Shown here: positions 2,155-62,719 of the stretch, in pieces | Layout: every line of letters starts with the position of its first letter | Numbering within the stretch: position 1 is the stretch's first letter | NCBI GenBank assembly: GCA_963731085.1 | Contig: CAVSUF010000019.1 | Location: forward strand, 134,382-198,381 | Direction of reading: 5' to 3' | Source of the DNA: an uncultured Actinomycetota bacterium | GTDB taxonomy: Bacteria; Actinomycetota; Actinomycetes; Streptosporangiales; Streptosporangiaceae | DNA length: 64,000 nucleotides | Position numbers and translations under genes: made by a program | Notes under the pieces: model-generated | Database searches by the model: none | What the model was told of the DNA's origin: nothing | Seen by the model: only the letters and a program-made list of their open reading frames with translations

Positions 2155-2814
2155 ATGCCCAGGTCCGGCAAGGGCGGCCGCTATCACCATGGCGACCTGC
2201 GGGCGGCGCTGATCGAGACCGCCATTGAGCTGATCGGCGAGCGCGGGCTGCGCGACTTCTCCCTGGCCGAGGCCAGCCGCCGGCTGGGGGTGGCGGTGAG
2301 CGCCCCCTACGCTCACTTCAGCGACCGGGACGCCCTGCTGGCCGCGGTAGCGGCCCGGGGCTACGAGCTGTTCGCGGCCGAGCTGGCCGGGGGCGACGAT
2401 CCGGGCTCGTCGCCGGACCGTCGGCTGGCCGAGCTCGTCCGTGCCTATGTCCGCTTCGCCGCGGCCCGGCGCCCCCTGTTCGAGATGATGTACACCCACG
2501 GCCTGGACAAGCGGCGCCATCCCGAACTCGAGGCGGCGGCCAAGCCGGTGAACGACGCGTTCGACTCCAGCGTGCGAGCGGTCATCGGGGGCGACGAGCA
2601 GGCCACCGACGCCTTGTTCGAGGCACTGGAGGCCAGTCTCCGGGGCTACGCGATGTTCCTGCTGGACGGGCACTTCGACGACGGACCGGAGGCGATCGAC
2701 CGGGCCGCGGCCAGCGCGTCCCGGGCCGCCCTGGCCCTGATCGAGAGCCGCGCGCTGCTCGCCCCGCCCCCAGGCGCCCCGGCCCCGGGCGCCCCAGGCC
2801 CCGGCCCCGGGTGA
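2155..2814 (+). CDS. TetR/AcrR family transcriptional regulator
   Basis: The ORF is open from 2053; ATG 2155 gives MPRSGKGGRYHHGDLRAALIETAIELIGERGLRDFSLAEASRRLGVAVSAPYAHF, the canonical TetR N-terminal HTH. It is divergent from the MFS gene. Confidence 0.85.
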   Translation: MPRSGKGGRYHHGDLRAALIETAIELIGERGLRDFSLAEASRRLGVAVSAPYAHFSDRDALLAAVAARGYELFAAELAGGDDPGSSPDRRLAELVRAYVRFAAARRPLFEMMYTHGLDKRRHPELEAAAKPVNDAFDSSVRAVIGGDEQATDALFEALEASLRGYAMFLLDGHFDDGPEAIDRAAASASRAALALIESRALLAPPPGAPAPGAPGPGPG

Positions 2815-2921
2815 CGCTGCCTCGCGTGACGCTGCCTCAGGTGACGCTGCCCAGTAGCGGGACGCCTGTCGCCTCCTGTTCACTGAGGTGTCAGCCGCGC
2901 ACGGTTAACTAGGCGCGGCGG

Positions 2922-4063
2922 ATGGGGAAGGAGCGGCCGGTGGAGCGAGTCGTCATCGTCGGGGGCGGCGTTCTCGGGCTGATGCACGCCGTGTCGGCCC
3001 GGCGCCGCGGCCTGGACGTGGTGCACCTGGAGCGCGAGCCGGGCCCGCGCGGCGCCAGCGTGCGCAACTTCGGCCTGGTCTGGGTCAGCGGCCGGGCGGC
3101 CGGCCCGGAGCTGGACCTGGCCGTGCGCGCCCGGCGAGCTGTGGGAGGAACTGGCCGCCGACGTCCCGGCGGCCGGGTTCCGCGCGCACGGGTCGCTGAC
3201 CGTGGCGGCCAGCGACGCCGAGCTGGCCCTGCTCAAGGAGGCCGCCGCGCTGCCCGACGCGGCCGAGCGGGGCTTCGAGCTGCTGGACGCGGCAGCCGCC
3301 CGGGAGGTCAACCCGGCGCTGCGGGGCCCGTTCGCCGGAGCGCTGCTGTGCCGCCGGGACGCCATCGTCGAGCCCCGCCAGGTGCCCGCCGCCATCCGCG
3401 GCTGGCTGCTGGCAGGCGGGTCGGGCGGCACCCCCGGCTACGCCTGGCTGCCCGGCCGGGAGGCCGTCGAGGTAGCGCCGTACGCCGTCCGCGACCACAC
3501 CGGCGACTGGCACCGGGGCGACCTGGTCGTGCTGTGCACCGGCGCCGCCCACACCGGCATCGCCGGCCCGCACCTGGCCAGCTACCAGCGCCCGCCGGTG
3601 CGCCGGGTCCGGCTGCAGATGCTGCAGACCGAGCCGTTCGACGGCCAGCTGACCACCTCGGTCGCCGACGGGGACTCGCTGCGCTACTACCCGGCCTACG
3701 ACCTGCCCGGCCGGGACCGGCTGCCGCCGCAGGAGCCCGCCGCGGCCGCCGCGGCGGCCCAGCTGCTGCTGGTGCAGCGGCTGGACGGCAGCCTGACCAT
3801 CGGGGACACCCACGAGTACGACGAGCCGTTCGCCTTCGACGTGGACGAGGCCGCCTACGATCACCTGCGCGGCCGGGCCGAGCAGCTGCTCGGGACCGCC
3901 GCTGCCGCCTACCCGGCGCCGGTGGGCCGGCGTCTACAGCCAGGTCACCACGACCGAGCTGTACCACCGCTCGCAGGTCGCGCCGGGCGTCATCCTGGTG
4001 ACCGGCCCCGGCGGGCGGGGCATGACCTGCTCGCCCGCCATCGCCGAGGAGACCTTCGCGTGA
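2922..4063 (+). pseudogene. FAD-dependent oxidoreductase (TIGR03364-like, aminophosphonate-associated), two frameshifts
   Basis: The N-terminus VVIVGGGVLGLMHAVSARRRGLDVVHLE is a dinucleotide-binding fold. The protein continues in frame 1 from about 3133 (ELWEELAADVPAAGFRAHGSLTVAASDAELALL...) and in frame 2 from about 3910 (WAGVYSQVTTTELYHRSQVAPGVILVTGPGGRGMTCSPAIAEETFA, stop 4061-4063). Confidence 0.75.
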
Positions 4064-4123
4064 CGCCGTGAGCAGCAGCAGAGCCAGCCGCAGCACAGCC
4101 AGCCGCCCGGGAGAGATGGGCCG

Positions 4124-4823
4124 ATGAGCCAGCAGATCACGACCGCCTGCCTGGACATGGCCGGCACGACCGTCGCCGACGACGGCAGCGTCATGACCGC
4201 GTTCGGCGCGGCCGTGGCCGAGGGCGGGCTGATCCCCGGCGCGCCGGGCTACGACCAGGCCATCGCCTACGTCCAGGCCACGATGGGCCAGTCCAAGATC
4301 GAGGTGTTCCGCGCGGTGCTCGGCGGCGAGGAGCGGGCCCAGCGGGCCAACCAGGTGTTCGAGGAGCGCTACGCCGAGGCCGTCCGGGCGGGCGACGTCG
4401 CGCCGCTGCCCGGCGCGGTGGAGACGATCACGGCGCTGCGGGCCGCCGGGATCAAGGTGTGCCTGGCCACCGGCTTCGCCCCGGCCACCCGGGACGCCCT
4501 GCTGGACGCGCTCGGCTGGCGGCCGATCATCGACCTGGCCCTGTCGCCCGCCGACGCGGGCCGCGGCCGCCCGTGGCCGGACCTGCCGCTGACCGCGCTG
4601 CTGCGCCTGGGCGGCGGCGCGGTCAGCGAGCTGGTCGGTCGTCGGCGACACCGCCAGCGACGTCGAGTCCGGCCTGCGCGCCGGCGCCGGCCTGGTGGCC
4701 GGCGTCCTCACCGGCGCGGCCAGCCGCGAGGACCTGGAGCAGGCCGCCGCCCCGCACATCCTGGACTCCGTCACCGGCCTCCTGCCCCTCCTCGGCATCG
4801 GCCCCGTCCCGGTCCGCGACTAA
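4124..4823 (+). pseudogene. phosphonatase-like HAD-superfamily hydrolase (PhnX-like), one frameshift
   Basis: MSQQITTACLDMAGTTVADDG carries the DxAGT motif typical of PhnX-like HAD enzymes. After about 4630 the protein continues in another frame: VVGDTASDVESGLRAGAGLVAGVLTGAASREDLEQAAAPHILDSV, stop 4821-4823. Confidence 0.75.
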
Positions 4824-4846
4824 CCCGCCCCAGCCGCCGCTTTTTC

Positions 4847-4899
4847 CATGATCGTGACCGATTGCCCGTCGCTGACCCGGGCAATCGGTCACGATCATG
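4847..4899. repeat. palindromic intergenic element, copy A (perfect 22-bp stem, 9-nt loop)
   Basis: CATGATCGTGACCGATTGCCCG-tcgctgacc-CGGGCAATCGGTCACGATCATG. The same termini recur at 13383, 45769 and 62431. Confidence 0.9.
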
Positions 4900-4913
4900 T
4901 GGGCGGACCCGGC

Positions 4914-5055
4914 GGCCGGCCGCGCAGGCGGGCGGGCGGTGGCCGGGCAGCGGCCGGCGCAGGCGGGCGGCGGGTGGCCGGGCGGCGGCCGCGCAGGCGG
5001 GCGGCGGTGCGCGCGGGCGGGCGGCCGGGCGGCCGGGCGGGCAGGCAGGCGGCGG
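4914..5055. repeat. GC-rich minisatellite (about 35-38 bp unit, about 3 copies)
   Basis: Repeated ggccg(g)cgcaggcgggcgg(g)cgg(g)tggccgggc(a/g)gc units lie directly downstream of palindromic copy A. Confidence 0.7.
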
Positions 5056-5059
5056 GAGG

Positions 5060-5510
5060 ATGCGGATGGCGATCAGCGACGAGGTGCTGGCGGTGCTGCG
5101 GGCGCAGCTAGCCGGGCAGGCGGACGAGCACGCGCGCCGCTGGGACCGGCTGGCCCCGGCCGCGCGGCTCGACTACCGGGCGCTGGTCCTGGCCGCGTTC
5201 TGCGGGGCGGCCGACCGGCGGTTCGCCCCGGCCGCGCCCGCCGCCGAGGTGGCCGCCTACGTCACCGACGTGCCGGGCCCGGTCGGCCCGGGGCGCCGAG
5301 ATGCTGGACCCGCGGACCGCCGAGCGGCTCATCCGCGCGGTCTACACCGACGAGGACACCGCCGACATCGACGCGGCCACCAGCTACCGCACCGAGATCC
5401 TGATGCTCGGTGCCCTGACCGCCGACGCCCGGCTGGACGACGCCCAGCTCGATGAGTTCCTGGCCGCCGCCCGCCGGACCGCCGACCAGTGGCTGGCCAC
5501 CCGGAACTGA
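5060..5510 (+). pseudogene. hypothetical protein, one frameshift
   Basis: RBS GGGAGGA precedes ATG 5060/5066. MAISDEVLAVLRAQLAGQADEHARRWDRLAPAARLDYRALVLAAF...AAYVTDV then continues in the frame of ORF 5301..5510 (...MLDPRTAERLIRAVYTDEDTADIDAATSYRTEILMLGAL...). No family recognised. Confidence 0.45.
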
Positions 5511-5516
5511 GGGCTG

Positions 5517-7206
5517 CTACCGGGGCCAGTCGACGGTGAGGAGGACGTTGCGGTCGGCCGGGGTGCCCGCGCCCGCGCCGCCCTCGGCGGTGATCAGGTC
5601 GCGGATCTGCCAGTCGTTGGCGGACAGCTCGCGGGACAGCGCCGCGAGCCGGGCCGGGCTGGCGTCGTCGCCCGGCCCGGAGCCGCCCGGCCCGGAGTCG
5701 CCCGGCCCGGATGCCGCCCGGCCCGGAGCCGCCCGGCCGGGCCGCCGCCGTAGCCGGCCGGGGCGGCGCTGTCGATGACCGTGCAGGCGATGGCCAGGCC
5801 GCGGCCGGACGGCGAGCAGCTCGATCAGCCGGGCCTGCTGCGGCCAGTCGATGTGCGAGGCGGTCGTCACCTGCCAGAAGCCGGCTGGCCCGGAGCCATT
5901 CGTTATGGCCGTGATCTTGTGTTCGTGGGTGTGGCCGTTGACCCAGGCGACCACGCACGGATGGGCGAGCAGGACCTCGCGAAGCTCGGCGGCCAGGATC
6001 CGGCGGCCGGCGCCGGGCGGGCGGTTGCCGTTGACCAGGGTCTCCAGCGGGTGGTGGCTGAACAGCACCACCGGGCGGCCCGCGGCGGCGGCCAGCTCGG
6101 CCTCCAGCCAGGCCAGCTGGGCCGCGTCGAGGGAGCCCTGCCAGCCGCCGTGCTCGTTGACGGTGTCCAGGGCGATGCACCGGACGGCGGCGTGCGGCGG
6201 GGCCCCGCCCGGGCCGGGCCGTCGAAGGCGTAGTACGCGGTGCCCTCGTCGGCGTTGCGCCGGGAGAAGCCGTGCCCGGCCGGGGTGCCCGGGGAGCGGA
6301 AGTGCTCGCGGACGTAGTCCGGCCCGGCGGACCGGGGCACGGGCCGGGATCCGGGGTGACCGCCAGCGTGGTGCCCGCCTGAAGCTCCAGCAGCGCGTCC
6401 GGCTCGGAACGCTCGAACCGGGCGGCCAGCTCGGCCAGGTCCAGGCCGCGGGGCGGGGTGACGACCTTGAGCCCGCCGACGCCGACGTCGCCCAGCCAGC
6501 CCTCCGGCGGCACCGTGCCCTGCAGCATGTTGTCGTGGTTGCCGTGCACGGCGTACCAGGGCAGCCCCAGCCCCGCCGCCCGGAACGGGCGCCGCACGGC
6601 GTCCAGCGCGCCCGGCACCTGCGGGAAGCCGAACGCGGTCTTGGGGAGGTCCGGCGACCGGGCCCGGGTGCCAGTACCGCTCGTCGGCCACCTCCGGGCC
6701 GGACACGCCCTCGTAGCGGTCGGTGTCGCCGGAGTCGGGCCTGACCTCGCCGCCGTCCAGCAGGTCGATGACCGCGCGCAGCTCGTTGCGCTGGCAGTTG
6801 TCGGTGGCGTCGCCGGTGATCACGGCGAAGTCCACCGGCGCCCCGGACACCGGGCCGGCCGGGTGCTGGCGCACCGCCCGGCGACATCGCCTCGGCGACC
6901 TGGAAGGTGAACAGCTCCTGCGCCCGGTAGGTGCCGATGATCCCGACCTCGGCCCGCAGCGGGGAGTCCGGGTCCGAGCAGCGGTCCAGCAGCTCGACCC
7001 GGGCCGGGGACTGGTGGTCCATGATGTGGGTGTCGGACAGCTGGGCGATGACCAGCAGCGGCCGGGCCGCGCGGCCCGCCGCCGGGCAGGCCGGGGCCGC
7101 CCAGCTCGTCCCGGGCGACGTGCTGCTCGCCGTCGGCCGGGACGAGCCTGCGGTAGCCGCCGGCGCCGGGCTCGCCCGGCACCAGCCGCCGCCGCGCGGT
7201 GCTCAA
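5517..7206 (-). pseudogene. metallophosphoesterase (TIGR03767-like), at least four frameshifts
   Basis: Fragments lie in four frames: STARRRLVPGEPGAGGYRRLVPADGEQHVARDEL; LSDTHIMDHQSPARVELLDRCSDPDSPL; VDFAVITGDATDNCQRNELRAVIDLLDGGEVRPDSGDTDRYEGV; LPWYAVHGNHDNMLQGTVPP; and LDTVNEHGGWQGSLDAAQLAWLEAELAAAAGRPVVLFSHHPLETL...WVNGHTHEHKI. These carry the calcineurin-like motifs D-x-H, GD, GNHD, GHTH. A TTG start at 7206 sits 5 nt after a GAGGA RBS, directly downstream of the ABC ATPase stop. Confidence 0.75.
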
Positions 7207-13382: not shown

Positions 13383-13435
13383 CATGATCGTGACCGTTTT
13401 TCCGCCATATGCGCGGGTAATCGGTCACGATCATG
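13383..13435. repeat. palindromic intergenic element, copy B
   Basis: CATGATCGTGACCGTTTTTCCGCCATATGCGCGGGTAATCGGTCACGATCATG. An extra half-site CGGTCACGATCGGGGAAAACC lies at about 13458-13478. Confidence 0.9.
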
Positions 13436-14030
13436 GAAGCCGGGCCGGCCGGCCGCGTCGGTCACGATCGGGGAAAACCACCCGCCGGCCGAGCCTCCGC
13501 TGGGGGAGGCTAGCGGCTGGCCGCGGTTACGGAGCGGATACGGGCGCGGGCAGGCATAGCCCGACTGGTATCGGGAATACCCGGCATAACGCCGGAACCC
13601 GCAGGTTGGGCATGAGCGGCCCGAGACCGGCCCGAGCGGGGCCCGCCAGGGCAGTCCGGGCAGGGCGGTAAGGTCGGCCGGGCCGGATGGCCGGCGGGCC
13701 GCCGGCGGGCCGAGCCGGGTGAGCGAGCCGGGTGAGCAGGCGAGGGAGGTGCCAGGTGGCGGTGCTGCGGCAGGCCGGGCGGGCCGGGCGCTCCGCGCCG
13801 GGCGATGTCCCAGGCGGCGAGCTGCTGCGCGGCGAGCTGCTGCGCGGCGAGCTGGGCGAACTGCTGGTCAGCGAGCCGGGCCTGGCCGAGGCGCCGGGCC
13901 GGGCGATCAGCGGCGGGACCGGCTTAGCCGCCCTCCGGAGCGTCGCGGACAGGGGGCCAGCGAGCCGCCTGCGACGCTCTCGCTACGATTTGAACGCAAG
14001 CCACACCGTCTGAGGGGGCTGCAGAACCGC

Positions 14031-14864
14031 GTGAGCGTGCTCGACGACATCATCGAAGGGGTGCGCAGCGACCTGGCCGAGCGCCAGCAGCTGGCGCCAC
14101 TGGATCGCCTGAAGGAGGCGGCCAGCCGGGCGCCGTCGCCGCGTGACGTGCTCGGCGCCCTGGGCGGCGACGAGGTCTCGGTCATCGCCGAGGTCAAGCG
14201 GGCCAGCCCGTCCAAGGGCGCGCTGGCCGCGATCGCCGACCCGGCCGCGCTGGCCTCGGACTACGAGGAGGGCGGCGCGCGGGTCATCAGCGTGCTGACC
14301 GAGCGGCGCCGGTTCGGCGGCAGCCTGGAGGACCTGGCCGCGGTTCGCGAGATGGTCCAGGTGCCGGTGCTCCGCAAGGACTTCATCGTGACCTCCTACC
14401 AGCTATGGGAGGCCCGCGCCCACGGCGCCGACCTGGTCCTGCTGATCGTCGCCGCGCTGGACCAGAACGCGCTGGTGTCGCTGATCGAGCGGGCCGAGTC
14501 GATCGGCCTGGTGCCGCTGGTCGAGGTGCACACCGCCGAGGAACTGGACCGGGCGCTGGAGGCCGGCGCCCGGGTGGTCGGCGTGAACGCCCGGAACCTG
14601 GCCACGCTGGAGGTGGACCGCAGCGTGTTCGCCGCCCTGGCCCCGCAGATCCCCGAGGGCGTCATCAAGATCGCGGAATCCGGCGTGCGCGGCCCGCACG
14701 ACCTGCTGGCCTACGCGGCCTCCGGCGCCGACGCCGTGCTGGTCGGGGAGAGCCTGGTCACCGGCAAGGACCCGCGTACCGCCGTGGCCGACCTGGTCAC
14801 CGCCGGGCTGCACCCGGCCCTGCGTGGCGAGCGTGCCCGCCGGGAGCCGGGCGAGCCAGCCTAG
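14031..14864 (+). CDS. trpC: indole-3-glycerol phosphate synthase
   Basis: GTG 14031 follows [27 protein letters not shown]...[16 protein letters not shown]...[15 protein letters not shown]...LRKDFIV...[13 protein letters not shown]...ESGV is canonical TrpC. The ORF is open from 13719, but the upstream part is low-complexity. Confidence 0.92.
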
Positions 14865-15043
14865 CGGCCCGGCCGGCCAGCCTTTTTACCCGAGCGGGCG
14901 GTTTAGCCGGCCCGCGGCCGTGTAGGCCGGTGACCTGCCGGGCATCACCGCACGCAGGGGAGCCGGCGAGGCCGACCCGGGCGCTGGGCCCGGGGCCGCG
15001 ACCAGGCTGACCTGCCGAGGTGCCTGACCAGCGTAGGAAATGT

Positions 15044-22387: not shown

Positions 22388-22428
22388 GCCCGGCGGCGGC
22401 CGGGTCGCGGGCGGCTCAGCCCCGTCGG

Positions 22429-22511
22429 TGCCGGGAGCGGGATTCGAACCCGCACGCCCTTTCGGGCAGATGCTTTTGAGGCATCGGCGTCTGCCGTTCC
22501 GCCATCCCGGC
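22429..22511 (-). tRNA. tRNA-Leu (anticodon CAA)
   Basis: The reverse complement GCCGGGATGGCGGAACGGCAGACGCCGATGCCTCAAAAGCATCTGCCCGAAAGGGCGTGCGGGTTCGAATCCCGCTCCCGGCA folds as a cloverleaf. It has a 7-bp acceptor stem, anticodon stem GATGC/GCATC with loop CTCAAAA, a long variable arm GCCC-GAAA-GGGC, and T arm GCGGG-TTCGAAT-CCCGC. CCA is not encoded. Confidence 0.93.
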
Positions 22512-44556: not shown

Positions 44557-45405
44557 GTGCAGTCGCCGGAGGCCCAGCCGGCCGCCTTCGAGGTCCACCT
44601 GGACAACTTCGAGGGGCCGTTCGACCTGCTGCTCGCGCTGATCTCCAAGCACAAGCTGGACATCACCGAGATCGCCCTGTCCAGCGTCACCGACGAGTTC
44701 ATCGCCCACATCCGTGCCCTGGCCGACGCCTGGGACCTGGACCAGGCCAGCTATTTCCTGGTCGTGGCGGCCACCCTGCTCGACCTCAAGGCGGCCCGGC
44801 TGCTGCCCGCCGGGGAGGTGGACGACGAGGAGGACCTGGCCCTGCTGGAGGCCCGCGACCTGCTGTTCGCCCGGCTGCTCCAGTACCGGGCGTACAAGGA
44901 GGTGGCGGCGGTGCTGGCCGCCAGCATGGCCGTCCAGGGCCGCCGGTTCGCGCGCCGGGTCGCCGATGGAGCCGCAGTTCGCCCAGCTCCTGCCCGAGGT
45001 CCTGCTGGGCCTCGGCCCGAGCAGTTCGCCGCCATCGCGGCCCGGGCGCTGGCCCCCCGCCGCCCGCCGGTGGTCTCCACCGCCCACCTGCACGTGCCCC
45101 GGACCACCGTCCGCGAGCAGGCCGAGATCCTGGCCGCCCGGCTGCGCGACCTGCGCCGCGCGACGTTCCGCCAGCTCACGTCGGACTGCGCCGGCACCTA
45201 CGAGGTGGTGGCCCGGTTCCTGGCCGTGCTGGAGCTATACCGGGAGAGCCGGATCACCTTTGACCAGGTGGTGCCGCTGGGGGACCTGTTCGTCTCGTGG
45301 TCTGATCCCGGCCCGGACGACGCCGACCCGGACCCCGATGACGCGGACGCCGACGGCCCCGGCGCGGCAGTGCCGCCCGTCGGCGAGAAAGAAGATTATG
45401 AGTAA
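44557..45405 (+). CDS. scpA: segregation and condensation protein A
   Basis: FEVHLDNFEGPFDLLLALISKHKLDITEIALSSVTDEFIAHIR...FLVVAATLLDLKAARLLP...LLEARDLLFARLLQYRAYK. A segment of about 55 nt (about 44960-45015) reads better in another frame (PMEPQFAQLLPEVLLGLGPEQ), which indicates a compensated pair of indels. Confidence 0.88.
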   Translation: MQSPEAQPAAFEVHLDNFEGPFDLLLALISKHKLDITEIALSSVTDEFIAHIRALADAWDLDQASYFLVVAATLLDLKAARLLPAGEVDDEEDLALLEARDLLFARLLQYRAYKEVAAVLAASMAVQGRRFARRVADGAAVRPAPARGPAGPRPEQFAAIAARALAPRRPPVVSTAHLHVPRTTVREQAEILAARLRDLRRATFRQLTSDCAGTYEVVARFLAVLELYRESRITFDQVVPLGDLFVSWSDPGPDDADPDPDDADADGPGAAVPPVGEKEDYE

Positions 45406-45768
45406 CGATCCGATCTCCCTCCCCTGGCTCATCACCGACGAGCCCACGGGGCCGGCCCCCAGCCCGCCCCGGGCGGACGCCGCCGGACCAGCCGAGCCAG
45501 GCCCCGCAGGAGAGCGACGGCGCGATCCGGCTAAGCCCGTCGAAGAGGCGGACCCGGCCGGAGGGGCCGAGGGGGCCGAGGGGCCTGAGCTGCCCGAGGG
45601 GCCTGGCAGGCCAGGGGCCTGGGCCGAGGGGCCTGAGGCAGGCCGAGGGGCCTGAGCTGCCCGAGGGGCCTGAGCTGCCCGAGGGGCCTGGGCCTGGCCG
45701 AGGGGGCCGAGTCGCCCGCCGGGGGCCTGGCCGAAGCCGAGGGCGCCGAGCTGCCCGAGCCGCGCGCT

Positions 45769-45822
45769 CATGATCGTGACCGTTTTTCCGCGACTTTTGC
45801 CGGACAATCGGTCACGATCATG
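45769..45822. repeat. palindromic intergenic element, copy C (54 bp)
   Basis: CATGATCGTGACCGTTTTTCCGCGACTTTTGCCGGACAATCGGTCACGATCATG, between scpA and the scpB core, preceded by GGGCCTGAGCTGCCCGAGG-type tandem repeats. Confidence 0.9.
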
Positions 45823-45859
45823 GAATCCGCCCCCGGGGAGGCCGCCGGGACCCAGGCTC

Positions 45860-46699
45860 GTGTGGCGAGCGGGGCCACAGGGACACGCGAGACTGAGGCC
45901 GAGGCGGCTGAGGCCGCCGACGCCGAGCCGGCTGAGGGCGAGGACGGCCGGGGCCGATGCGGTTGCGGCGGCTGAGGCGGCTGGGGCGCACGAGGTTCAG
46001 TCGGCCGGGGTTGAGGCGGCAGACGCCAAGCGGACCGAGAGCGAGGCAGCCGAGGCCCGGGCCGAGGCGGTCGAGGCAAAGTCGGCTGAGGCGGCTGCGG
46101 CGGCTGGGGCTGAGGCGCCTGCTGGCGTGGAGGCTGAGGCCGGGCCGGGGCTGCGGGCCAGCCTGGAGGCGATCTTGCTGGTCGCCGACGAGCCCGTGCC
46201 CGAGAACGTCATCGCCCAGGTGGTCGAGCGGCCCACCGAGGAGGTGGTCGCGGCGCTGCGCGCTCTGGCGGGCGCCTACACTGCTGAGGAGCGCGGCTTC
46301 GACTTGCGGGAGATCGCCGGCGGCTGGCGGTTCTACACGCGCGCGGAATGCGCGGGCGTCGTCGAGCGGTTTGTCCGGGACGGCCAGGAGGTCCGGCTGA
46401 CCCAGGCGGCCCTGGAGACGCTGGCCGTCGTGGCCTACCGGCAGCCGGTCAGCCGGACCCGGGTGTCGGCGGTGCGCGGCGTCAACTGCGACGGCGTGAT
46501 GCGGACGCTCGTGCTGCGCGGGCTGGTCGAGGAGTCGGGCGCGGACCCGGACACCGGGGCCATCCAGTTCCAGACGACCGGGTACTTCCTGGAGCGGCTG
46601 GGGCTGGCCGGCCTGGCCGATCTCCCCGAGCTGGCACCGTTCCTCCCCGATCATCTAGACGACGAACAGGACGCAGGCCATGAGAATGCCGGGTCGTGA
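45860..46699 (+). pseudogene. scpB: segregation and condensation protein B (start uncertain, probable frameshift in the acidic N-terminal extension)
   Basis: The core reads LRASLEAILLVADEPVPENVIAQVV...GFDLREIAGGWRFYTRAECAGVVERFV...RLTQAALETLAVVAYRQPVSRTRVSAVRGVNCDGVMRTLVLRGLVEE...FQTTGYFLERLGL. The Ala/Glu-rich leader switches frame near 45950. Confidence 0.85.
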
Positions 46700-52102: not shown

Positions 52103-52287
52103 TTGCGTGACCAATAACACCTTTTCGGTCACTCCTTTCCCGGCTGACGCTGGAAAATGGCAGTCTGCACCATATGACCCATAAGCGCCCGGATCCGTGC
52201 ACAGAAGGCATACACGGCGTGACGCCACGTACTCATAATGGTCTGAGCATGCATGGACGCGCAAGTGCGTGGCAGGAATATTGCAGA

Positions 52288-53840: not shown

Positions 53841-54711
53841 GTGGTTTCCTCCGAGTTCGCTGAGCTCGTCGAGCAGGTCGCGGATGAACGCCTTGGTCTG
53901 CTCGGGCGTCGGGCTGGTCGCGCCGATCTTGTCCAGCGCGGCGGTGTACTGCTCGACGTCGGTGCGCTTGTCCAGGTACATGGCGCTGGTGACCTGCTCG
54001 ATGTAGACCACGTCGGGCAGGTCGGCGGTGGCGAACTTGAGGATGCTGAAGCTGCCGGGCACGAGATAGGAGGCGCCGTCGGGGAAGGGCGTCACCTGGA
54101 GCGTGAGGCCGGGCCGGTCGCTGACCTCGAGCAGGTACTCAAGCTGCGCCGCGCATCAGCGCGCGGTTGCCCACCGGGCGGCGCAGCGCCATCTCGTCGA
54201 TCAGCGCCCACAGCCGCAGTCCGCCCGACGTGAACCGCCGCTGCCGCTCCTTGCGCAGGAATACCAGCCGGTCGGTCTCCTCCAGGGAGAACTCGCCCAG
54301 CTCGATCACCGCGCTGGCGTACTCCTCGGTCTGCAGCAGGCCGGGCACGAACTGGGAGTCGTAGCTGCGGATGGACTCGGCCGACTCCTCCAGCCCGATG
54401 TAGGACTGGAACCAGCCCGGCAGCACGTCCTGGTACCGGTGCCACCAGCCCGGCTGGTTGGCCTGGCTGGCCAGCGACAGCATCTGCTCGCGCTCGTCGT
54501 GGTCGGTGATGCCGTACAGGGTGAGCAGGTCGGCGATGTCGACCTCGCGGAAGGCGTTGCGCCCTAACTCGATCCGGCTGATCTTCGACTCGGAGGCGCG
54601 GATGGCCTGGGCGGCCTCGTGCGCGGTGACGCCCCGTGACTCCCGGAGCCGGCGTAGCTGGGTGCCGAGGAGGATCCGCAGGACAGTCGGGCCAGCGACC
54701 TCATCCGTCAT
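53837..54711 (-). pseudogene. XRE-family HTH regulator with DUF5753 domain (WhiJ-like), at least one frameshift; 3' end ambiguous
   Basis: LGTQLRRLRESRGVTAHEAAQAIRASESKISRIELGRN (HTH); GWWHRYQDVLPGWFQSYIGLEESAESIRSYDSQFVPGLLQTEEYA; then, after a shift near 54140, LEYLLEVSDRPGLTLQVTPFPDGASYLVPGSFSILKFATADLPDVVYIEQVTSAMYLDK. A GTGA start/stop overlap with the DUF397 gene would be restored by one more 1-nt shift. Confidence 0.78.
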
Positions 54712-54873
54712 GACTCGTACTCCGTCTCGCCGGTGACCCGGCCCGGGCGCGAGCCCGGGGTGACGGTCCGGCGATCATCTTGTGGGTTCAGCATCTTATG
54801 GGTGGACGTTACCCGGGTGGTGCACCAGGTGCTTTGGCGCCGGTTCTGCAACCACAGCGCCGGGTAAATGCCG

Positions 54874-54889
54874 TTACGCAATTGCGTAA
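54874..54889. promoter_or_regulatory. perfect 16-bp palindrome upstream of the second WhiJ-like gene
   Basis: TTACGCAATTGCGTAA lies in the AT-richer region between XRE gene 2 (start 54711, minus) and the aldo-keto reductase gene (start 55177, plus). Confidence 0.4.
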
Positions 54890-55176
54890 TAGTTCCAGCC
54901 GCTACGTGAAGAACATTCGCCAATCGCCAGCCAGTTCATGATATCGCAGATGAGATTTCGCGCCAGCCCTAGTCCCCGCTGACTATCGGTGGCCGATTGG
55001 CCCCGGCTGGCTGCGCTACGTAACCATAGCGCATGTGAGCGTGACCACGTGGCCGGTGCCGGCGAATCGGGCCCGGCCGCTACGATCGGGGGCGGGGCCG
55101 GCCGGGCGGCTGCGGCATGCACCGCCCGCGGACGAGAGCTTTCAGCAACGGGCTGCGTGAGTAGAGAGCAGGAGAC

Positions 55177-62272: not shown

Positions 62273-62425
62273 CAGGGCGACAGCCGGTGCAGGTCGCGCG
62301 GGAACAGCGTCACCTCCCGGACGTTGGCCGCGCCGGTCAGCCGGGCCGTCCAGCGGGCCAGCCCGATCGCGAAGCCGCCGTGCGGCGGCACGCCGCAGGC
62401 GAACACCTGCCCCGAACCGCCCCGG
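62273..62425 (-). pseudogene. 3'-terminal remnant (about 50 codons) of a class II aminoacyl-tRNA synthetase-like gene (AspRS/AsnRS type)
   Basis: The minus-strand translation GQVFACGVPPHGGFAIGLARWTARLTGAANVREVTLFPRDLHRLSP-stop matches class II motif 3 and the C-terminus (PPHGGFG.G..R......G..N.R.V..FPRD..RL.P). There is no upstream coding continuation. The remnant abuts palindromic copy D. Confidence 0.6.
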
Positions 62426-62430
62426 TTTTC

Positions 62431-62483
62431 CATGATCACGACTGATTTCTATGGATTTTCGCCAGAAAACGGTCGCGATCATG
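62431..62483. repeat. palindromic intergenic element, copy D (diverged, opposite orientation)
   Basis: CATGATCACGACTGATTTCTATGGATTTTCGCCAGAAAACGGTCGCGATCATG. Its reverse complement aligns with copies B and C (CATGATCGCGACCGTTTTCTGGCG...). Confidence 0.85.
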
Positions 62484-62719
62484 GGGTTTCGCCACTCGGG
62501 CTGGCCCGGCGGCGCGGCGAAAATCAGCTGGATGGGCCGGGGTGACCTGGCAGGCTGGCTGCTCGCGGCGCCACCGCACTTTCGCGGTTGCCCGGCCCGC
62601 CGGGACCAGCCAGGCCGGAGCGGCGGCCGCCTCATCACGGCCCGGTGACGGGGCCGGCCGCCGGCGGCGCGCGTGGCCGCGGGCCTGTCGCCGGTGATCA
62701 GGGGAATTACCCTGGAGTC

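Follow-up and report, generated by a model that had tools for sequence, protein, structure and literature searches.

Four palindromes in the window, the whole stretch of 64,000 nucleotides of actinobacterial DNA that was analysed, are genuine copies of a dispersed repeat family in uncultured soil actinobacteria. The palindromes are dispersed, the same palindromes form both ends of a gene-bearing module, and the module is present in different genomic contexts. On balance, we favor the reading that the copies in the window are solo, non-autonomous palindromes, that their complete form is the two ends of a selfish nuclease-gene module of about 1.15 kb, and that the protein encoded by the module would be the agent of spread. 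The REP-like palindrome family is previously undescribed in the sources that we searched; the literature found on MITEs, REP/RAYT, DUF559 and AbiEi does not describe it, and an exact-sequence search gave unrelated matches only. The association with an AbiEi-like/DUF559 nuclease gene is the part that merits follow-up.

Results

The window contains four full copies of one palindrome

All four full copies are present at the coordinates claimed in the original prediction, and there is a half copy in addition (Table 1). A repeat finder reproduced the perfect stem and the gap that had been claimed for copy A, and gave a stem of 24 nt with 88% complementarity for copy B and one of 22 nt with 91% for copy C. 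The 14-bp inverted termini that had been described as common to all copies are exact in A, B and C (CATGATCGTGACCG and CGGTCACGATCATG) and inexact in D, which has 3 and 1 mismatches. Overall, the element measures 53-54 bp, of which each inverted terminus takes up 12-14 bp. The inner left arm GTTTTTCCGC is indeed common to B and C, and the description of D as inverted relative to these two is reasonable, as the right arm of D resembles the left arm of B and C.

Table 1. Full and partial copies of the palindrome in the window, with scores from covariance model R1.
Feature	Position	Strand	Structure	R1 score (bits)
Copy A	4847-4899	.	perfect palindrome, 53 bp; 22-bp stem, 9-nt loop	62.6
Copy B	13383-13435	.	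imperfect palindrome, 53 bp	68.9
Half copy	13459-13480	+	CGGTCACGATCGGGGAAAACC, right arm alone; 23 nt downstream of B
Copy C	45769-45822	.	54 bp, equal to 18 codons without a stop	70
Copy D	62431-62483	.	diverged, 53 bp, CATGATCACGAC...GGTCGCGATCATG	52.8

The copies stand out from the rest of the window. We built a covariance model (R1) from 35 copies in the window and other genomes. Run on the window with filters off, R1 found exactly four copies (48.6-70 bits), and the next match had 12.8 bits (E = 0.18). The 14-mer terminus, with up to 3 mismatches, occurred 48 times in the window compared to 7.5 times expected. Folded as single-stranded DNA, the copies had energies of -14.6 to -28.8 kcal/mol (z = -5.1 to -9.0). 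Their G+C content was 45-60%, compared to 73-75% for the window.

The copies are missing from matching sites in relatives

We compared the sites of the four copies to the matching sites in related genomes. The nearest genomes come from uncultured MAGs that bear the label Streptosporangiaceae. The HAD protein shares 97% identity with its counterpart in SMAG_U4896, the identity of the DNA is 84-91%, and ScpA is 78-84% identical to that of several MAGs. Five sets of loci were used: 80 scpA loci, L143-L150 collected via TrpC, L151-L159 via the XRE regulator, L160-L239 via a neighbour gene of L004, and L240-L247 via the HAD hydrolase. Genes next to the copies were identified by Pfam scans. Copies A, B and D were absent from the matching sites of relatives with DNA 78-92% identical, and C was absent in all close relatives but one over the same range; the positions are not conserved. 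Absence at the matching site was shown each time, and none of the five sets gave a clean filled/empty pair; the boundaries of the element are not defined by these comparisons because the spacers are too diverged or the difference is larger than the element. When R1 was run on 1.09 Mb of relatives' DNA that had not been selected for the element, it found 1 weak copy, compared to the four in the 64-kb window.

Copies A and B each form part of a larger insert that is specific to the lineage (about 680 and 300 bp, respectively), and neither is a clean insertion. Copy A is 23 nt past the stop codon of the HAD-hydrolase gene, at the left edge of a 680-bp insert (4840-5519) that consists of copy A, G-rich tandem repeats (about 4900-5060) and an ORF of 147 aa (about 5066-5510). 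In L240 and L150, about 15 bp take the place of the insert, and the HAD and Metallophos genes have a 4-nt overlap there. The 147-aa ORF has no match in Pfam and was rejected as a transposase. Copy B is 144 nt past the stop of Trp_oprn_chp (the Trp-operon membrane protein) and upstream of trpC, within about 300 extra bp of GC-rich spacer that is missing in L144, L150 and L240.

Copy C is probably within scpB. All copies had been described as intergenic, and this holds for the others but probably not for C, which appears to be in frame within the N-terminal extension of ScpB if a frameshift correction is made. C lies between the ScpA and ScpB domains, in an AE-rich, low-complexity N-terminal region of ScpB. 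The scpB ATG at 45399 overlaps the scpA stop, and the AE-rich frame reaches the ScpB domain only if two or three frame changes are allowed. C is the sole 54-nt copy in the window and is open throughout, and the gene call in L152 spans the position homologous to it. Copy C is missing in L159 and in the 80 scpA-scpB loci. In L152, a 90.5%-identical relative, the contig stops at ACGATCAT, the exact right tip of C, and the sequence that follows is homologous; the L152 lineage therefore probably has copy C.

Copy D has a gene remnant on one side and an FMN_bind_2 gene on the other. As originally predicted, it abuts a truncated gene, which we identified as a class II aaRS (AspRS/AsnRS-like; 62275-62409, minus strand) with the last 45 of 465 codons left and its break point 21 nt from D. 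In L159, the 465-codon gene is intact and copy D is missing. A second small hairpin (GGGTTTCGCC...GGCGAAAATC) is immediately to the right of D (region 62275-62526), and the leader CGCGGCGCCACCGCACTTTCGC of the lost aaRS gene is kept at about 62566.

Judging by these surroundings, the copies in the window seem to be passengers: A and B would expand spacers, C would add 18 codons to a disordered part of ScpB, and D would mark a deletion junction.

The palindrome family is dispersed among genomes of Actinomycetota

A scan with the exact termini found 16 loci and a relaxed scan found at least 57, with at least 10-12 loci per genome in relatives. Among the matches listed, true copies were found only in MAGs of Actinomycetota. 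According to the record titles, several of these are Streptosporangiaceae or unclassified bins, two are Kineosporiaceae and one is Solirubrobacteraceae. Relaxed-pattern matches outside the actinobacteria were His/Asp-rich coding repeats and were rejected as elements, and the viral contigs that we searched had no copies.

The tips of the palindrome are conserved and the interior varies while keeping its self-complementarity. The conserved tips are CATGATC(RYG)AC...GT(CRY)GATCATG, with Y outside the left tip and R outside the right. Double changes were found in 11 of the 20 modelled pairs. The loop words are genome-specific (CCGC-AAAxxTCT-GCGG in one clade, CGTGTATCACG in Kineosporiaceae), and other subfamilies have the CATGATC tips alone in common. 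Near-identical copies are present at different loci of one genome (L009 and L141), and clusters of two or three copies are found within 450 bp in L001 and L013. Of 76 half-flanks, 70 have a purine just outside the tip on the 3' side, and the next position is enriched for A (Y...R(A)). In a rough tally, the genes around the copies were convergent in about 12 cases, tandem in about 15 and divergent in about 5.

Some contigs end at the palindromes. L249 and L250 (3423-3524) end in a 102-bp fold-back around a 54-bp element, and short-read contig ends of L152 and L161 fall at palindromes, indicating that the element breaks or distorts assemblies.

The same palindromes bracket a gene of about 1 kb

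Palindromes of the family stand on both sides of a gene of about 1 kb, an arrangement that we found in two genomes and in about 20 metagenomic units. In L101 (Kineosporiaceae MAG-70), near-identical palindromes at 4066-4118 and 5170-5227 bracket a gene at 4117-5169 on the minus strand. A translated search with this gene over all fetched sequences found a homologue in L014 (MFD02671), at about 2753-3721, bracketed by palindromes of that genome's own subtype (2612-2663 and 3724-3776). The modules in L101 and L014 are 1162 and 1165 bp, respectively, and the two proteins are 41% identical when aligned.

The association with palindromes was also found in loci that had been selected by protein only. 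We searched JGI metagenomes with an alignment of the two proteins and obtained 80 loci with homologues that are 46-95% identical. With R1 (E < 0.01), 26 of 27 distinct matches in these loci were no more than 260 bp from the ends of the gene, a zone that makes up about 13% of the bases. A generic hairpin finder detected strong palindromes no more than 300 bp upstream of the gene in 28 of 61 distinct loci, compared to 1.7% of random windows, and no more than 160 bp downstream in 18 of 64 loci, compared to 3.7% of random windows. About half of the gene homologues had no strong flanking palindrome, which counts against the module reading.

In units with both palindromes, the pair is 76-92% alike. 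The sequence of the palindrome differs between protein subfamilies (CATGATCGTGACCG..., CATGATCGGGGTAC..., AATTATCGTGTGCA..., GTGTGTCATCCCGGG... and TTGCGCGATGTTTGCC...), indicating that protein and palindrome change together. In at least 8 units, the stop of the gene is the TGA inside the tip TCATGATC.

The module is found in unrelated surroundings. L283 and L290 have 1153 bp in common (86.6% identity), with more than 2.3 kb of unrelated sequence on each side, and the homology extends from the outer edge of the upstream palindrome to the outer tip of the downstream palindrome. Matches limited to the module were also found between L312 and L320 and among L310, L318, L324 and L327; overall, the modules are 81-87% identical and the flanks are unrelated. 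A break between L304 and L301 proved to be only a difference in tandem-repeat length. ABC ATPases, MFS transporters and an aminotransferase recur near the element and were rejected as its partners, as they were paralogues or at orthologous sites.

Two other features of the modules were observed. The loops of the flanking palindromes are direct in some of L275, L283, L287, L290, L312, L318 and L324 and inverted in others, a mixture reminiscent of flip/flop states at hairpin termini. In both L014 (2664-2752) and L101 (5128-5169, minus strand), the segment from the upstream palindrome to the start codon contains words similar to TTGTCCACA, which look like the DnaA box of actinobacteria (TTTTCCACAG, TATCCACAG, GTTGTCCACAG).

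There was no homologue of the module gene within the 64-kb window, so any cognate protein in the organism of the window is hypothetical, and we counted this against the module reading. Plasmids had no homologue of the module protein, and phage records gave two distant matches, both in unannotated contigs. The statement in the original prediction that no transposase is associated with the palindromes is correct for the surroundings of the window copies, but elsewhere the family brackets an AbiEi-like/DUF559 gene. This gene is neither a RAYT nor an IS200/IS605 gene, the two kinds of associate that had been proposed.

The module protein has an AbiEi-like N-terminus and a predicted nuclease domain

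The module protein combines an AbiEi-like winged-helix N-terminus with a DUF559 restriction-endonuclease-like C-terminus. PADLOC AbiEi models matched the first 120-220 residues of all 29 sampled members (E down to 2e-27), and apart from AbiEi-type matches PADLOC gave 2 weak matches to DpdF. Of the 29, 20 matched Pfam AbiEi_4, 13 matched DUF559 and 3 matched the REase_MTES_1575 model. For DUF559 the matches were weak (best E = 9e-6), and we counted this against the module reading. Weak sequence matches in the PDB were to AbiEi (6Y8Q) and to a DUF559-like protein (3HRL), and NCBIfam had no model for the family.

The C-terminus contains the block Y.DNLY...VELDG..H...D..RDN...LRY, in which D235, E246 and D248 (L014 numbering) are invariant. 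These residues fit a site of the PD-(D/E)XK type, and the protein is predicted to be a nuclease. Each module has a single gene; an AbiEii toxin gene is not part of it. In the literature that we searched, nothing ties DUF559 or AbiEi proteins to palindromic repeats.

Discussion

How the module protein could spread the palindromes

We propose that the module protein would recognize the palindrome, with the winged helix binding the arms, and that the nuclease domain would cleave the CATG/GATC tips, or DNA close to them, in a duplex, a cruciform or a hairpin. This activity would spread, in trans, both the module and single palindromes, as proposed for RAYT transposases with REP/REPIN sequences and for IS200/IS605 with its hairpin ends, though here the protein has another fold. 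More speculatively, both tips might be cut in a staggered way at CATG, as by a restriction enzyme, and then re-joined into YCATGR sites. The missing target-site duplication and the Y...R flanks would both follow from such cutting and ligation at YCATGR. Against this proposal, a PD-(D/E)XK nuclease alone cannot do strand transfer, and mobility would have to rely on host repair or on ligation.

We regard it as possible, but doubtful, that the module is an unrecognised class of mobile element, in which the enzyme would be a nuclease of the REase fold guided by a winged helix (not a DDE, HUH, serine, tyrosine or DEDD enzyme) and the 53-bp palindromes its non-autonomous, REP-like offspring. The suggestion in the original prediction that the palindrome binds a protein is probably correct in part, because the module protein is a likely binder. 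By analogy with AbiEi systems, the upstream palindrome of the module could simply be an operator.

Other explanations for the palindromes

The solo palindromes might be remnants comparable to solo LTRs, left when a module lost its gene by recombination between its flanking palindromes, in which case the solos would not move themselves. The likeness of the flanking palindromes (76-92%) and their direct orientation in several units agree with such an origin, as does the finding that solo copies are far more numerous than gene-linked ones in the sampled loci. We consider it unlikely nonetheless. Copy C is a 54-nt insert that appears to be in frame in scpB, and a 1.15-kb intermediate would disrupt the gene. 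Other units have inverted flanking palindromes, which are unable to delete the gene, and in L001 and L013 the solo copies themselves are clustered.

It is less likely again that the family is an ordinary MITE, that is, a deletion derivative of an IS with a DDE transposase and CATGATCGTGACCG terminal inverted repeats. Such an element would have the conserved terminal inverted repeats, the small size and the dispersed copies with no gene inside that we found. However, target-site duplications were not above chance: 33 of 38 copies had none, compared to 33.7 in the shuffled control (a duplication of CATG inside the tips would escape this count). No transposase recurred near 37 element loci, and the sole gene that is repeatedly bracketed by the palindromes does not encode a DDE enzyme. 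In addition, the entire element is palindromic with compensated changes, not the ends alone.

The copies could instead be fixed operators, the immobile binding sites of the regulon of an AbiEi-like regulator, a reading that we hold to be improbable. AbiEi antitoxins repress their own promoters through inverted repeats, and the upstream palindrome is 40-180 bp before the start of the module gene. Against this, the copies in the window are after stops, in a coding region and at a deletion junction and not in promoters, and many copies across the loci are between convergent genes. Furthermore, positions are not conserved among relatives and the interiors differ among copies of one genome. As operators of an AbiE system in particular, the palindromes were rejected, as the modules have a single gene without AbiEii and none of the copies in the window precedes a gene of that kind.

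A hairpin that functions as RNA and is selected at that level (as a terminator, RNase III site or mRNA stabiliser), which the original prediction had allowed, is very improbable. The hairpins are very stable, many copies are just after genes, and REP sequences are known to have such side effects at the RNA level. However, there is no T-tract; a terminator scan does not call A or B, and no T-run follows any copy. Comparing G-U to A-C mismatches, the transcribed strand was unbiased (12 versus 13). The base of the stem is conserved and the loop is variable, the reverse of most RNA motifs. In Rfam 15, only a tRNA in the window reached the gathering score, and a loose search with copy A gave sub-threshold matches that were noise from miRNA hairpins. 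Based on the lack of an Rfam match, of a T-run and of strand bias, we conclude that the constraint acts on DNA.

It is equally hard to credit that the palindromes are classical REP sequences that a Y1 (HUH) RAYT or an IS200/IS605 transposase encoded elsewhere in the genome has spread. They are like REPs in size and palindromic form, in being clustered, in causing no duplication and in following genes, but the tips have no GTAG or CGTC tag and the gene flanked in about 20 units is AbiEi/DUF559-like, not Y1_Tnp.

Comparison to known systems

The original view of a dispersed, REP/MITE-like palindromic family without target-site duplication is supported, yet the family fails the defining tests of REP/RAYT, DDE-type MITEs, IS200/IS605, attC and Rfam. 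It works most like REP/RAYT. REP sequences are palindromes of 20-65 nt that form hairpins and are dispersed outside genes in many copies; the family here agrees, with four copies in 64 kb, at least 10-12 loci per genome in relatives, and clusters in L001 and L013. REP/REPIN with RAYT have in common with this family dispersed, multi-copy hairpin palindromes that are frequently found in clusters and directly behind genes; in both, target-site duplications are missing, the same palindrome brackets a rare gene, and the palindrome varies along with the associated protein. The protein here differs from RAYT in being an AbiEi-like winged helix with a DUF559 PD-(D/E)XK-type domain and not a Y1 HUH enzyme; Y1_Tnp had no match among the flanking genes examined. 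In REP sequences, one end of the stem carries a conserved tetranucleotide, GTAG or CGTC (PMC3733652). This tag was absent, as all copies begin with (Y)CATGATC, and the hosts are Actinomycetota.

The resemblance to IS200/IS605 and PATE lies in compact modules of about 1.2 kb whose ends are hairpins and not simple inverted repeats, no duplication and small gene-less derivatives. In contrast to IS200/IS605, the module has no TnpA (Y1) or TnpB (none in the 29 module proteins by Pfam and PADLOC scans), both ends are the same full palindrome, and no conserved target tetranucleotide was identified.

Bacterial MITEs (Correia, ERIC, RUP) are also small, non-autonomous, bounded by inverted repeats, able to form hairpins and mostly between genes. 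MITEs measure 50-800 bp, with terminal inverted repeats no shorter than 10-15 bp (PMC11602168), and the family agrees on both counts (53-54 bp; 12-14 bp), with 53 bp at the lower size limit. In MITEs, a duplication of 2-10 bp of the target flanks each copy; here, neither such a duplication nor a DDE parent was found. A module that carries a gene between these ends exists, and its protein is of no known transposase type.

Rickettsia palindromic elements (RPE) are about 100-150 bp. Copy C is like an RPE in that it is apparently in frame in a region of a gene that tolerates extra residues; however, the palindromes here are much shorter and unrelated in sequence, and only one of the four copies is genic, by a reading that needs frameshift correction. 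The AbiEi antitoxin of the type IV AbiE system is matched by the N-terminal 120-220 residues of the module protein and also has an upstream inverted repeat, but the module differs from AbiE in lacking the AbiEii toxin gene and in having a nuclease-like C-terminus, a second palindrome after the stop, and scattered solo palindromes. Free-standing PD-(D/E)XK or Vsr-like homing endonuclease genes are similar as small, selfish-looking genes with a site-specific nuclease fold in varying contexts. In contrast to these, the module is bounded by long palindromes, is not in an intron, intein or phage context, and has gene-less ends that are dispersed.

Integron attC sites have core sites R''/R' (RYYYAAC / GTTRRRY), extrahelical bases and arrays beside an integrase. 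The palindromes were rejected as attC, given their tips (CATGATC / GATCATG) and the perfect palindromes among the copies.

Significance

REP-like repeats are common, yet to our knowledge the agent that spreads them is not known in most phyla, and the link to RAYT made in 2010 is the only well-supported case that we know of. The family described here is the second case, independent of the first, in which a dispersed palindrome is paired with a gene that it brackets; the case is from Actinomycetota, and the fold of the protein differs. Should the nuclease be the mobilising enzyme, DNA would have a further, new enzymatic route to mobility. Widespread proteins described as "AbiEi antitoxin domain / DUF559", which are now annotated as toxin-antitoxin parts or as unknown, would also gain a function. 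The practical effects of the palindromes include broken short-read assemblies, false ORF starts (MIVT...), possible in-frame insertion into genes, and a position at a deletion junction.

Other features of the window

A GTGACC-N14-GGTCAC motif (52107-52132), which had been put forward as a looser relative of the palindromes, is not a member of the family. It is upstream of a HATPase_c_2 gene, is conserved at the same position in the relatives L151-L157, and looks like a local operator.

In the window, trpB and trpA are missing between trpC and the glutamate synthase gene (14845-15024), and L144, L150 and L240 have about 2.15 kb with trpB and trpA at that spot. The trpBA deletion junction has no palindrome. 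In the spacer upstream of trpC, motifs at 13555-13595 (...ATCGGGAATACCCGGCATAACGCCGG...) and 13951-14030 (...GGGGGCCAGCGAGC..CTCTCGCTACGATTTGAACGCAAG...) are conserved in relatives amid divergence and may be leader or regulatory sequences.

There are apparent frameshifts at ~4590 (HAD hydrolase), ~5250 (small ORF), 45399-46160 (N-terminal region of ScpB) and 54139-55000 (XRE/DUF5753 regulator, which is 290 aa in relatives). Their pattern suggests long-read assembly errors or pseudogenes. The sole Rfam/ARAGORN match in the window is a tRNA-Leu (CAA) at 22427-22511 on the minus strand.
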